Source: Octopus vulgaris
Taxonomy: Eukaryota
DNA: 64,000 nucleotides
Assembly (NCBI GenBank): GCA_951406725.2
Contig: OX597836.1
Span: forward strand, 46,624,001 to 46,688,000
Direction of reading: 5' to 3'
The position numbers and the translations under genes are program-made. This document shows, one piece after another, positions 7,183-62,792 of this stretch. The notes under the pieces are model-generated. The model was given only the letters and a program-made list of their open reading frames with translations. It did no database searches and was not told where the DNA came from. Within the stretch, counting starts at the first letter, position 1; each line of letters opens with the position of its first letter.

Positions 7183-7436
7183 CAACAATAAAAGGGTAAA
7201 ACTAATTAATTATTAATTAATTTTACCAAGTAGTGTTCAGTATGTAAAATGGCCATTTACGGTATATTTAAAACATTACGTTATATAATTAGGGTTCAGT
7301 AAAATAATTTACTTTACCACACACCGAACTTTTAGAAATAGCAGCCAAAAAATCTTAGCTATTTCTTCTACTATAGTAGAAGAAATAGCTAAGATTTTTT
7401 GGCTGCTATTTCTAAATTATATAACATTATGTTTTA
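7183..7436. mobile_element. (TA)n-embedded structured element with perfect 86-bp palindrome (7331-7416)
   Basis: AGG-hairpin...AGG-hairpin...GAAATAGCAGCC architecture; (TA)n on both sides. Confidence 0.7.
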
Positions 7437-7731
7437 TATATATATATATAATAAAAATAGGGATCCAAAGAATCAAACAGAGCTCGTATTAAGTTCTCTG
7501 ACAAAGGTATGACTAACAAGAAAGACTGTGATTAATCAAGGTTAAGATACGCTCTAGTGTTATTCTGCAAATCCAAGAATTACAATGGTAGAGAATATGT
7601 ATAAACACTGAACAGAGAAGAGAAGTGAAGTGAGAGAATAGACACTTATTCCATTATTTTACAGCTGTTTCATAGTTATATAACGGACATTACATTGCCA
7701 TTTACATGTTTATAAATGTATGTATGAATAT

Positions 7732-7949
7732 CCGAAGGGGTGCTGAAAAGTTCTGGACTTTAAGGGTCTTGTGAAATGCCTGGTTAGAGGCCCAACCCTC
7801 TGAGTTATTTTACAGGACCTACTTAAACTGAAGGGACACTGCAATAGGTGTGTAAATCTGAGAGAGGAATATGTTGAATAAAATCATAATTAACTGATCC
7901 TCCTGTATTTTCTTTAACCCAAAGCCAGGAACTTTTCAACACATCCTAG
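7732..7949. mobile_element. Mariner-type MITE
   Basis: Degenerate TIRs cgaaggggtgctgaaaagttctgg / ccaggaacttttcaacacatcctag. Confidence 0.7.
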
Positions 7950-9042
7950 TATATGTACACCCATACATATAAATTTGCTGAAATGTAACTAAACAATCAT
8001 TTTCAGAATGTTTTATGAACTATCATGAAGCTCTCTGACGATTAGTCTGTTAAATTACAGCAAATTTATATCTATATTATATGTATGGGTGTAGGTATAT
8101 ATTTGTATATGTGTGAATGGTCATGCAATGTCTATTATATGACTAACATGATTATGAAACAGCTGTAAGCTAAGAGCATAAATATATATTCTCTGACATC
8201 ATATCTCTTATTTGTTGCAAAGGAATGCAAGTACTGGTATCACACTTATTATTCCTTGGTTACAGCTGTTTCAACAATGTACATGTCAAATACATCATTC
8301 AACAAGTTGGAAAACATGAATATAAGCAATGATTATGTAATATTGAGTATATAACATAACACCCATAGTCATTTCATCCATGACTGGATGAATAAATTTC
8401 TGAGAAAAACATAGATGTATCCATCTATATGTAGAGACAGACAATCTGGTGGGAGGGGGTTCATATTCTTGTAGGAAGAAGGTCTGTTATAAAAGAAAGG
8501 GGATAGATGATAGTTTTTCTGTATCAATTGATGAAATCAATTTTGAAGTTGGATTTATCAATTAGTCTAGATATTCAAACAGCTGTCAGGTTGAGAAAGC
8601 AAAACAATATTAAAATCTGTGCATTAATGTCATAAATCAACAGGGATGGCCATTTCTTGAGTGGCTTGAAAGAAATCCTTCATGAACAGAGAGAGAACAA
8701 AGAGGTACTCAATATATAAATAAACACACACACACAAAATAACACAAATGGGCTGAGGTTCACTACAGTTGTTTCAGACGTTTTTTTTTTTTTATTGATG
8801 AGCAACTCAATCACATCGTGTAACAAAAAATAAAAATAAAAAACGTTTTCTTCTGGCAAATTAATGTATAACTGGAAAGACAAATCTGTGTATACCCTAG
8901 CAAATACGTGATGTCCATACAAACTGTTGATACATGGGTATGCTATCCTTGACTCTATCACGGTGTCCCTATAATCAAAATACCTCAATTCTATTGGATC
9001 TTGAAAATAATTATATATATATATATATATATATATATATAT

Positions 9043-9356
9043 TAAAAATTAAATAAGGGTAGAAATTGATATTAATCAATTAAAACCAGTGGCTTAGCAT
9101 ATTTTAAAAAATCCAAAGATTAAAAATTTTTTTACAAACAAAATTTAGAGGACTGACCACTAAAAGTGGACAGCCTGAATGCTAGATATAGACGTCAAAA
9201 TCGCCATTTTGCACAAAGAATGTTTTCTCAAGAAAAAATTCAGCAAAAAACCATGAATTTTTCTTGAGAACACATTCTTCGTGGAAAATGGCGATTTTGA
9301 CGTCTATATCTAGCATACAGGCTGTCCACTTTTAGTGGTCAGTCCTCTAAATTTTC
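9043..9356. mobile_element. (TA)n-embedded structured element with ~215-bp fold-back (9140-9355)
   Basis: Inverted arms of ~100 bp; conserved AGG-P1-AGTGGC-P2 architecture. Confidence 0.75.
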
Positions 9357-9424
9357 TATATATATATATATATATATATATATATATATATATATATATA
9401 TATATATATATATGTATATATATA

Positions 9425-9595
9425 TAAGGATAAGATGGTTAATTTAAATATCGATCTTATCAAGTGGCCCAGCATGGGGATAAAAACCTTCAAAGGTAAT
9501 AATTATTATTAAAATTATAATTTAGGGTATCTAAGAGATACCACCATGCTGGAAATAGCAGCAAAAACCTGACTCTATAACCACATTAAGTTTTA
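9425..9595. mobile_element. (TA)n-embedded structured element without fold-back
   Basis: Stems GATAAGAT/ATCTTATC, CCAGCATGG/CCATGCTGG, ACCTT/AAGGT and GGTATC/GATACC, then AAATAGCAGC. Confidence 0.7.
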
Positions 9596-9706
9596 TATAT
9601 ATTATATATTTTATATATATTATATATATATATATATATGTTTGTATACACACATACACACACACATACACAGAGGAAAATAAGAGATGACAAAGGAAAA
9701 AAGTTA

Positions 9707-59764: not shown

Positions 59765-59920
59765 TCTTTCATTTTATTTTATCTAGTTTCAGCTCACGAG
59801 CTGTGGCTATGCTGGGGCACCGCCATTCAAAGACAAAGTTGACCTCGGCGGAATTTGAACACTGAACGTAGCGACAGGCGAAATACCGCTAAGCATTTCG
59901 ACCGGCGTGTTAACAATTCT
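59765..59920 (-). mobile_element. CR1 3' tail fragment joined to a SINE family B fragment
   Basis: 59778-59826 matches 19793-19840; 59832-59920 matches SINE B. Confidence 0.7.
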
Positions 59921-60801
59921 AACTTGGTCAATATTCTGCTCACTTTGGTATCTCTTGCCCAGGTAACACTGCTGAAGGGATTTGGGGGTGTTGGGTTCAC
60001 ATAAACACTCCACTCTATCTCTTTTCTGTTTCATTTCTAGCATTTGTGCTTGCTCCTCTTTGATATACAACTTTCTATCCAACATGGATTAGTTCCAACA
60101 AACAGAGGCAGGCACAAGTGTGACCACGAGCACAGAAACATCCAAGAGTGGGCGCAAAACATTGAGCATGCCCACACAGATGAAGATGAGGACTGAGTGG
60201 GCATGACAACAATCACAAACACAAGCACAGCTGTCACCAGGACGATGGCAATGAGCGTGAGCATGGCTGAGGCCCTACAACAGTGGAGGAAGTATAGTTT
60301 GTTTGTTCCAGAGCTGGGAAAATTGACTCAAAGAATTTGGATCAATTTCCACAACCAAAACATCTTTGAGTCTCTTTTGGATCAATCTAATTAATGTTCA
60401 AGCTGTTACGTTCCGCAAGGGTCAAACTATTTTGACTTTCAGTTGATACTTCAGAGGCATATCAAGCCTGGATGAGCTCCACATTTTCCTCTCCCTCAGG
60501 ACTGGATTTGATGTATGTAGAGGAATGAATGAATCATTGTGGAAAGTCTCTTGATCCCAAAAGTCTTCTCAAATTATATCACGTAGAGAGAATGTGGTCT
60601 TCATTGCAGAAGGCAATGAGATTAATCTTATCATTATACAATCCTTTGCCATTGTAAATATCACCTCGATTCTGGAACCACAAAAGTAGTTTAAGGACAA
60701 CTGGAAGGGGCCAGATGGACTCACTCTGTGCCCTTGGACTAGAAACAGATTCTCCATATGGAACACAACCATTAGCGACCCTTTAGTTCAATCACACGTG
60801 C

Positions 60802-61105
60802 GGAGGCACATGGCCTAGTGGTTAGAGCAGCAGACTCGCGGTCGAGGGATTGTGGGTTCGAATCTCAGACTGGGTGATGTGTGTGTTTATGAGCGAAACA
60901 CCTAAGCTCCATGCAGCTCTGGCAGAAGGTAATGGCGAACTTCTGTTGACTCTTTTTCCACAACTTATTCTCACTCTTTCTTCCTGCATCTTGCAGTTCA
61001 CCTGTGACAGACTGGTGTCCTGTCCAGGTGGGGAACCTATACGCCAAGGAAACTGGGAAACCGTCCCTTATGAGCCAGGCATGGCTCGAGAAGGAACAAA
61101 AAGAA
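60802..61105 (+). mobile_element. SINE family C
   Basis: A box tggcctagtgg, B box ggttcgaatc and V-like domain. Confidence 0.8.
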
Positions 61106-61616
61106 ACAGTCACATGTCATATAATGTTCCAGCAGAGGCTGGAGTTACTGCATTCATAACTCAATGGAATAAGGTGCTGAAATACCATAATCTGTCATTA
61201 AATAAATCTTACAGATTATGGCTTTTGATATGTCAGTGTGTCATTCTCATGTGATAGTGTAACAAAACTAATTGCCTGATACTTCAGGGGTACAATTATC
61301 TACGAAAAAAATAATTGAAATAATTAGGTAGTGATTAAGAACACGCAGCAAGCTGGACATATCTACTCTGTCATGAACCATGGTTCTACTCTGTCATGAA
61401 CCAACAAGTGAAATTATGTTTCTTTAGGGAATCAAAATTACTTCCCTGTATGACGAAACTGACTAAGCTGTCACTACAAAGCTTTCCCTCGTTAAAATAA
61501 AATATGATTACATAATGATACTGAGCGATCCTTTGAGAAATGTTAACTACTATTTACATATAACTATAATTTATATATATTTATATTATTATATATATAA
61601 CTATAATTTATATATA

Positions 61617-62003
61617 ACTGGCCTCGTGCCGGTGGCACGTAAAAGCACCATCCATTCGTGGCCGTTGCCAGCCTCGCCTGGCCCCCATGCTGGTGGCATG
61701 TAAAAAGCACCATCCGTTCATGGTCGTTGCCAGCCTCGCCTGGCCCCCGTGCCAGTGACACATAAAAAGCACCATCCGATCGTGGCCGTTTGCCAGACTC
61801 ATCTGGCACCTGTGCCGGTGGCACGTAAAAAGCACCCACTACACTCATGGAGTGGTTGGCGTTAGGAAGGGCATCCAGCCGTAGAAACATTGCCAGATCA
61901 AACTGGGCCTGGTGCAGCCTTCTGGCTTCCCAGACCCCAGTTGAACCGTCCAACCCATGCTAGCATGGAAAGCGGACGCTAAACAATGATGATGATGATG
62001 ATG
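61617..62003 (+). mobile_element. (GAT)n-tailed retroposon with internal ~60-bp tandem units
   Basis: Three to four ggtggcacgtaaaagcaccatcc units, then the family tail. Confidence 0.8.
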
Positions 62004-62049
62004 AATGAGGACGTATTTCACAAAAGGAAAAGTATTATAACCATGCATA

Positions 62050-62792
62050 GGTGCAGGAGTGGCTGTGTGGTAAGTAGCTTGCTTACCAACCACATGGTTC
62101 CGGGTTCAGTCCCACTGCATGGCACCTTGGGCAAGTGTCTTCAACTATAGCCTCGGGCCGACCAATGCCTTGTGAGTGGATTTTGGTAGACGGAAACTGA
62201 AAGAAGTCCGTCGTATATATGTATATATATATATATATATATTTATATATATCAACAATCAAGGAACGGCCATAATAGGCCATTCACCCACTAGAAATAA
62301 CAGCCAATAGCTTTAACCGCAAAATAACGTTAATTAACGTTATTTTGCGGTTAAAGCTATTGGCTGTTATTTCTAGTGGGTGAATGGCCTATTATGGCCG
62401 TTCCTTGATTGTTGATGTTGAACTTAAAAATAGTTTATGACTATTTAATTTTTTTCCCACTAGGCCGCTGGTGGCAAAAGAATTCTACAAAATTTTTTTT
62501 TTTTTTTTTTTGCCACCCTATATTGATTAATTATATTTATATATATATATATATATATATATGTGTGTGTGTGCGTGTATGTTTGTGTGTCTGTATTTGT
62601 CCCCCTAGCATTGCTTGACACCCGATGCTGGTGTGTTTATGTCCCCGTCACATAGCGGTTCGGCAAAAGAGACCGATAGAATAAGTACTGGGCTTACAAA
62701 GAATAAGTCCCGGGGTCGAGTTGCTCGACTAAAGGCGGTGCTCCAGCATGGCCGCAGTCAAATGACTGAAACAAGTAAAAGAGTAAAAGAGT
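62050..62792 (+). mobile_element. SINE family A whose internal (TA)n carries a structured-element insertion
   Basis: Head 62050-62215, tail 62562-62792. Confidence 0.88.
62251..62530. mobile_element. (TA)n-embedded structured element with perfect ~165-bp palindrome (62251-62416)
   Basis: Minus strand AGGGTGGCAAAA..TTTTGCCACC AGCGGC CTAGTGGG...CCCACTAG AAATAACAGCC. Confidence 0.8.

Follow-up and report, generated by a model that had tools for sequence, protein, structure and literature searches.

Non-long-terminal-repeat (non-LTR) retrozymes of animals were defined as tandem non-coding units with a type I hammerhead (PMC7229834; bioRxiv 10.64898/2026.07.22.740005), and the same two reports give their recruitment of a reverse transcriptase (RT) as unknown. 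Penelope-like elements (PLEs) are characterized by tandem, inverted and tailed insertions and a preference for (TA)n (PMC8557442), and the Poseidon protein was reported to cut both strands at AT-rich DNA and to start inside its RNA at two sites, with the genomic tail lying between them (Frangieh et al., PMC11167929). How PLEs make such insertions is still described as an open question (PMC8557442; PMC11167929). Here we analyzed 64,000 nucleotides of Octopus vulgaris DNA (contig OX597836.1, positions 46,624,001 to 46,688,000; hereafter the window), where an initial annotation had described a divergent family of structured repeats at eight places within (TA)n tracts. We conclude, with a probability of roughly 60%, that these copies are the truncated 3′ ends of ~500-bp non-LTR retrozymes, and that their shared fold is likely an RNA signal bound in trans as a start by a Penelope-like RT/endonuclease. 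The initial annotation was right to propose a conserved terminal structure of microsatellite-targeting Penelope-like retroelements, but the carriers are non-coding tandem units and not elements encoding RT and a GIY-YIG domain.

Tandem units with a hammerhead motif

Seven of the eight places hold full copies, which belong to seven different multi-copy families (A to G). Searches of the genome (2.8 Gb, 227 contigs) returned copies of each family at 91–100% identity, the best 40 of 1,223–2,939 candidates being scored. Each full copy is the end of a ~500-bp tandem unit, and all window copies are truncated before the hammerhead motif, which falls outside them. At one tandem locus per family the unit spacing is 562 bp (A), 535 (B), 487 (C), 488 (D), 494 (E), 534 (F) and 492 (G), so the head-to-tail spacing of 487–562 bp in 7/7 families lies within the ~150–1000 bp range of retrozymes. 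The units have a GC content of 31–36% and, like retrozymes, no protein-coding capacity, the longest ATG-initiated open reading frame (ORF) on either strand of the doubled unit being 28–70 aa. The initial annotation had asked whether long matches join an ORF with RT and GIY-YIG domains; when followed they instead close into ~500-bp non-coding tandem units, and in 7/7 families long copies run back into the next unit and not into an ORF. Families F and G, in which arrays reach six units, are very young: F, spaced at 534 bp, consists of near-identical copies (100% rounded identity in 40/40 scored matches), and the tandem arrays of G, spaced at 492–498 bp, hold copies that are 98–99% identical.

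In 7/7 families a descriptor search (core and stems I–III, with stem III short and mostly palindromic) placed a type I hammerhead motif 87–132 nt upstream of the anchor of the fold, always on one strand, the reverse of that used for the layout in the initial annotation. A short palindromic helix III has been reported for metazoan hammerheads that act as dimers (PMC4209133). In the 2026 retrozyme preprint, cleavage was seen for only one of nine predicted elements (bioRxiv 10.64898/2026.07.22.740005). One family G unit (L230) holds two hammerhead-like motifs per 492 bp, namely a canonical core whose stem II region spans 68 nt and, upstream of it, a variant in which U replaces C3. Judged by their sequence, the carriers match non-LTR retrozymes, that is, non-autonomous PLEs, an already described kind. 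The comparison with Rfam that had been asked for gave no known ribozyme or non-coding RNA model at gathering score, either at the tandem loci or among the 150 of 207 window matches listed; the latter include no relevant family and are nearly all microsatellite-driven microRNA matches. The two matches over copies, at 28245–28391 and 62275–62392, are below gathering score and reflect perfect palindromes. Contigs from sequencing runs cover parts of units F and G and give no strand, end or circle information; one contig of run X1, 563 nt long and thus 30 bases longer than a unit, is equally compatible with a circle or a tandem template, and no run recorded as RNA was found to contain family F.

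A doubtful alternative, which concerns ancestry only and is compatible with the retrozyme reading, takes the copies as ends of an unsampled autonomous Penelope-like family and the tandem units as deletion derivatives that kept their parent's end. Xenopus retrozymes do resemble the pseudo-LTRs (pLTRs) of PLEs (bioRxiv 10.64898/2026.07.22.740005), the families sampled are the best-scoring candidates of each search only, and some minor families are known only from short copies. However, upstream of the hammerhead the sequence returns to the next unit in all seven window families, and among the loci examined no structure match was continuous with the end of a PLE ORF, apparent links being broken by microsatellites or unrelated sequence. 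Candidate ORF links at L012, L197, L109, L062, L065 and L071 were rejected as neighbouring, non-continuous insertions.

A junction fold on the hammerhead strand

The fold is ~190 nt long and spans both points where insertions end. Read on the hammerhead strand, it starts with the P0 5′ strand, hairpin P5, the P2 5′ strand, P3 followed by CU, and an A/U-rich linker that often forms a hairpin; then come P4, the P2 3′ strand, the P0 3′ strand, 1–2 U, P1 followed by CU, and an A/U-rich end. P0 closes a three-way junction with P5 and P2, and P2 in turn closes a multi-way junction with P3, the A/U-rich hairpin and P4, after which comes P1. Re-inspection of the window bore out the layout first described at all eight places, and the stems quoted for it were located, for example P1 at 9429–9436/9454–9461, P2 at 9469–9477/9544–9552 and P3 at 9526–9531/9537–9542, or, in the 62520 copy, P1 at 62470–62479/62508–62517 and P2 at 62373–62380/62456–62463. 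Several of these stems are imperfect, however: P1 of the 9053 copy has only three closing pairs and an inner hairpin, and P2 of the 7190 copy is longer and shifted. The shared structured family is real, but it had been read on the wrong strand and the fold seen only in part, P0 and P5 being two additional helices. What had been taken for conserved linkers is conserved without being linker, since one is the P0 3′ strand and the other largely the P5 3′ strand. The 26745 copy, called partial, does hold part of the fold, yet it is not decayed but a lone arm that ends at the P3 site (site 2, defined below).

An iterated profile gathered 20 representatives including the seven seeds, where a first strict descriptor had recovered only three window copies. 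Over 14 families P2 shows 86 Watson-Crick pairs, 10 G·U, 2 U·U and no A·C in 98 cells (96/98 paired on the hammerhead strand), a count that left out three representatives with disrupted upstream sequence and one more that was not parsed. That the stems change in concert was thereby upheld: 20,000 strand swaps between families gave at most 79 Watson-Crick pairs, which is not a strict p-value as the families are related. One G-C pair of P2 is invariant in 14/14 families and a single junction order is retained across all of them. P0 shows 28/28 Watson-Crick pairs in the tandem-unit copies of seven families, A, D and G each altering both strands; in the family B copy of the window, one base of P0 is altered. 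Because this first count chose the best 4-mer within a 35-nt window, the test was redone on a structure-blind MAFFT alignment of 13 sequences, where 92% of 38 cells pair with five double changes, a result reached by 1/500 shuffles; MAFFT alignments misplace P2 between family groups. The excess of G·U in P2 points to selection on RNA of the hammerhead strand. The initial annotation had favoured a functional strand with ...CCCT(TA)n as its 3′ end, and the question is now settled in that sense by the hammerhead motif there in 7/7 families and by ten G·U against no A·C in P2. At least 14 divergent families in one genome also provide a natural covariation data set for a cis signal.

Such a compact, covarying multi-junction architecture with an invariant P2 pair and no Rfam match might suggest a new catalytic RNA, cleaving or ligating, beside the hammerhead. 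We consider this very improbable, since few invariant unpaired bases are left once P0 is recognized, each unit already has a hammerhead motif, and insertion ends spread over several nucleotides and not at one bond. The unknown ribozyme offered as an option at the outset finds little support, the units already having a hammerhead motif and the best-conserved "linker" being a helix strand.

Two insertion sites and paired arms

We define site 1 as lying after P1 and CCU, and site 2 as lying after P3 and CCU or CUCU. Among 426 arms mapped in 210 loci, 167 continue into the next unit; the others comprise 162 with their end at site 1, 92 with it at site 2 and 5 ending elsewhere. Hence 254/259 mapped ends fall at two sites, each ~10–17 nt past a hairpin and CCU. 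Exact matching ends mostly 8–20 nt past the CC of this motif, with ends scattered over several nucleotides, and both ends sit in A/U-rich stretches that resemble the target, a TA run being within 60 nt of 231/250 placed ends. The stretch between the two sites is 91–128 nt long. An opposite-strand partner stands behind 81/92 site-2 arms, each of which is then the inverted partner of another arm. Among 109 head-to-head pairs, 63 combine site 1 with site 2, 2 are site 1/site 1, none is site 2/site 2, a tandem arm takes part in 35, and 9 fall in no class, so that simple two-armed insertions have one site per side in 63/65, with the tail at one end only as in PLEs. Partial tandems and an inverted 5′-truncated arm, likewise Penelope-like, are also present.

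Of the 63 site 1/site 2 pairs, 20 have the longer inverted arm and 32 the longer main arm, while in 11 the two arms match to within 10 nt; their junctions comprise 38 overlaps, 4 blunt joins and 21 with extra bases. In the 20 pairs with the longer inverted arm, this arm holds up to ~260 nt absent from the main arm (for example main against inverted arms of 204 vs 466 nt at L004 and 257 vs 451 nt at L277), and because folding back cannot give an inverted arm longer than the main one, we infer two separate primings. A Helitron/DINE or terminal-inverted-repeat transposon was ruled out, as the arms are variably truncated at the centre and the units are tandem with a hammerhead motif.

In an unlikely variant for the same element class, the fold acts on DNA or after a single priming, the site-1 cDNA folding back to copy itself and the endonuclease then producing the second end by cutting the intermediate beside the P3 hairpin. 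Self-priming is the published reading of head-to-head palindromes (PMC3846280) and endonuclease-mediated resolution that of the tail (PMC8557442); the main arm is at least as long as the inverted arm in 43/63 pairs, and some insertions are perfect palindromes (62520; L010, L016). Folding back cannot, however, supply the sequence unique to the inverted arm in the other 20, and G·U tolerated with A·C absent on the RNA strand speaks against a fold at the DNA level. It is quite unlikely, too, that the fold mainly stabilizes or compacts a circular RNA or aids its ligation, the ends being merely A/U-rich single strands annealing to a nicked (TA)n primer. Such a role would suit the high degree of self-pairing predicted for retrozyme circles (PMC7229834), the lower folding energy of whole units on the hammerhead strand (F −149 vs −114, G −143 vs −98 kcal/mol) and the A/U-rich, target-like sequence at both ends. 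Yet the remaining A/U-rich sequence of the 300-nt span attracts very few ends (5/259 lie elsewhere), the same hairpin and CCU precede both sites, whose use is strand-asymmetric, and 14 families keep a single junction order.

Under the reading we prefer, of an RNA start signal bound in trans, tandem transcripts would be cut by dimeric hammerheads into monomers or circles, and a Penelope-like enzyme would nick both strands of a (TA)n tract. One nick would prime after P1 and the other after P3, ~90–130 nt upstream; both cDNAs would run into the unit, and round the circle where tandem arrays arise, and their far ends would be joined head to head, mostly through 1–10 nt of microhomology. The stretch between the two start sites would then be the Penelope "tail". 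By analogy, the two insertion sites fit the published two-start pattern of Poseidon, with a longer tail and a visible signal repeated at both. More tentatively, and at less than even odds, the fold could be a dedicated two-start scaffold, a multi-junction RNA that holds a dimeric Penelope-like RT/endonuclease with one start site per nicked strand, so that both strands of the insertion are reverse-transcribed. If true, the sister group of telomerase would thereby gain its first defined RNA recognition domain, and tail and inverted arm would have a common explanation.

The copies in the window are as follows. All full copies but the single-armed one of family C, six of seven, are two-armed insertions with their arms inverted head to head, which had gone unnoticed, and in these six the inverted second arm stops short, just past P3.

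7183–7434, minus strand: family A insertion (unit ~562 bp elsewhere); main arm 7183–7373 (minus) ends at site 1, after P1; inverted arm 7372–7434 is short, has an internal deletion and ends in site-2 linker sequence.
9043–9356, minus strand: family B insertion (unit ~535 bp); main arm 9043–9262 (minus); inverted arm 9254–9356 ends after P3 (site 2).
9427–9593, minus strand: family C single-armed copy (unit ~487 bp); P0 9581–9584 with 9464–9467, P2 9544–9552 with 9469–9477, P3 9526–9542, P1 9429–9461.
19261–19645, plus strand: family D insertion (unit ~488–500 bp); main arm ~19423–19645 (plus), up to site 1; inverted arm up to site 2 near 19261, with 47 nt of upstream unit sequence that the main arm does not reach (row L191).
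26600–26760 (left end approximate), plus strand: lone arm whose family is related to A and nearest to L038; it ends after P3 (site 2) and contains only the P0 5′ strand, P5, the P2 5′ strand and P3.
28198–28530, plus strand: family E insertion (unit ~494–520 bp); main arm up to site 1 (28530); inverted arm up to site 2 (28198), with 55 nt of upstream unit sequence that the main arm does not reach (row L281).
42805–43235, minus strand: family F insertion; main arm 42805–43075; inverted arm ends at site 2 near 43235; P0 43002–43005 with 42870–42873.
62240–62530, plus strand: family G insertion, forming a perfect palindrome with its centre near 62333; main arm up to site 1 (62530), inverted arm up to site 2 (~62240); P0 62347–62350 with 62465–62468.

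Profile matches occur in 5/40 evenly placed 10-kb stretches of the genome (9 matches) and in 4/20 stretches adjoining the window. The window is richer in copies of the fold than the genome average, and a rough extrapolation from the sampled stretches suggests tens of thousands of insertions genome-wide. The window sequence is microsatellite-rich and contains other repeats as well. At 26410–26560 lies a terminal piece, with a short palindrome at its centre, of another small repeat family, whose relatives at L039 and L250 carry a hammerhead motif and a different 3′ region; more hammerhead-bearing families ending in (TA)n, with 3′ regions unlike the fold, were seen at L080, L201, L011, L024 and L068, so that the genome holds several independent classes of hammerhead-bearing repeats. 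A local ~0.9-kb duplication with long (TGG)n tracts occupies 13326–14254 and 14316–15130, and a 51-bp minisatellite (11 copies, 97% match) occupies 39895–40464. Open frames at 19865–20248 and 27307–27756, both on the minus strand, are presumably fragments of non-LTR retrotransposon RT.

Candidate enzymes and related systems

The genome holds young, intact Neptune-like (781 aa) and Hydra (717 aa) elements, further Neptune-like families, old Naiad copies and an old family that we take to be Poseidon-type. The Neptune, Hydra and Naiad labels come from motifs in the published clade descriptions (PMC8557442). Many intact ORFs of the 781-aa and 717-aa elements were seen at L061–L065 and L111–L130; the former element has an upstream ORF and a 3′ untranslated region (UTR) of repeated TGACGTC/ATTGG motifs, the latter 2.59-kb tandems and a hammerhead core CCGAAGA. 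In the window itself, pieces of a Hydra-clade PLE are nested in (TA)n: an end that consists of the tail only at 37263–37340 (minus), an RT fragment at 37381–37533 (minus) that shares 64% identity over 55 aa with the 717-aa protein, and, at 37540–37810 (plus), a 3′ UTR whose hammerhead motif lies at 37738. The search for an autonomous carrier took 30 of 150 GIY-YIG matches as loci together with 20 wider stretches, and was extended with a Hydra RT fragment, a Naiad motif and a Poseidon-type motif; the motif of the published octopus Naiad element has 378 exact matches in the genome. Naiad itself was excluded as the carrier, as the units have a hammerhead motif, Naiad lacks a canonical one, and 30 Naiad ends were without the fold. 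An apparent resemblance of the published octopus Naiad 3′ end to the P5/P2/P3 arm was dropped after these 30 ends had been read.

Several results weigh against a retrozyme end signal recognized by a Penelope-like enzyme. Rfam hammerhead models give no match at gathering score in eight loci, nor any up to E 10 in 601 bases of L147; the long stem II is probably the cause, and the hammerhead assignment therefore rests on the descriptor. No autonomous element with the fold was found among the seven Penelope-like lineages sampled in the genome: the 3′ ends of four Neptune-like families and of the 717-aa Hydra family differ from it, Naiad ends are without the P2 3′ strand, P0 and P1 (30 of 378 motif matches read), and the ends of the Poseidon-type family differ too (8 of 117 motif matches examined). 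The octopus tail of 91–128 nt is far longer than the published 30–40 nt PLE tail. As for the fold itself, the pairing probability of P0 exceeds 0.5 in only 8/13 families and is ~0 in A, F, A6, A7 and A8, P5 is weak or absent in E, F and A7, the shorter core by itself has the better folding energy on the hammerhead strand in no more than 10/15, and covariation counts overstate independent events since the families are related. The two site 1/site 1 pairs break the rule of one site per side in the pair classification (none does so in the end mapping), the queries included P1, so that site 2/site 2 and lone site-2 insertions are under-sampled, and the two site windows are wide, ~60 nt each of the 300-nt span.

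Our best guess for the driver, a weak one, is a Hydra-type element, because the two ends of the octopus 717-aa family lie ~70–75 nt apart, one per side of a head-to-head pair (L114), and marine relatives have a doubled hairpin at similar spacing. The marine comparison set consists of 79 Hydra loci (L401–L479), with three more loci from genome contigs. Downstream of the hammerhead in these loci, a hairpin with a GCTC/GAGC closing stem and ACTCT directly after it occurs twice, mostly 54–82 nt apart, in 19/24 stretches that have the motif and 200 nt of sequence; one copy is visible in three published Hydra consensus ends. This doubling may be the Hydra-clade equivalent of a doubled start signal. 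Compared with the 79 marine loci, the fold profile gave only one 23-nt fragment match. As no cross-mobilization was seen between PLE types in a rotifer (Arkhipova et al., PMC3846280), an unsampled autonomous family may also exist.

The element class, the tail and the inverted arm are already known, and what is apparently undescribed is the end signal. Neither the fold nor a double priming in PLEs was found in full-text literature searches, whose scope stopped short of Repbase, Dfam, the PMC13282606 repeat library and the bioRxiv supplements. Many active SINE (short interspersed nuclear element) families without a class appear in a repeat annotation of Octopus vulgaris from 2026 (PMC13282606), and the families reported here may be catalogued as SINE or unknown in Repbase, Dfam or that library. 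Given that exact predicted start sites, the very young families F and G and intact candidate enzymes coexist in the same genome, the recognition rule and the two-priming model are directly testable in the published in vitro assay.

With animal non-LTR retrozymes (Cervera and de la Pena 2020, PMC7229834; Li, Clavereau and Pollet 2026, bioRxiv 10.64898/2026.07.22.740005) the octopus units share non-coding tandem organization, low GC, one type I hammerhead motif per unit, a range from monomers to multimers and co-occurrence with PLEs. They differ in length, 490–560 bp against ~225–390 bp in coral, mussel and axolotl. Octopus goes unmentioned in the 2020 main text and is absent from the groups that the preprint sampled, and the accessible parts of both contain no shared covarying domain or pair of mapped insertion ends. 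With the pLTRs and tails of endonuclease-bearing PLEs (Poseidon PAc, PMC11167929; Naiad, Hydra and Neptune, PMC8557442; Adineta Penelope, PMC3846280) the common features are partial tandems, a head-to-head 5′-truncated inverted arm, an extension at one end only, AT-rich or (TA)n targets and a hammerhead upstream of the end. Unlike those autonomous elements, however, the octopus units lack an ORF for RT and GIY-YIG, and both their ends stand behind a repeated hairpin and CCU within one large junction fold, whereas the start region of PAc is described only as an AC-rich stem-loop (PMC11167929).

Hydra-clade PLE ends, represented by the octopus 717-aa family and the marine loci, share the (TA)n target, the hammerhead, two ends (octopus family) and a doubled hairpin (marine loci), while their sequence and fold differ from those of the retrozymes. 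Twin priming of LINE-1 is a further parallel, in which the second target strand primes internally on the RNA and leaves an inverted segment joined by microhomology. In the octopus insertions the second site is fixed by structure and the arms overlap in sequence, so that, unlike in LINE-1 twin priming, a tandem, circular or second template would be needed.

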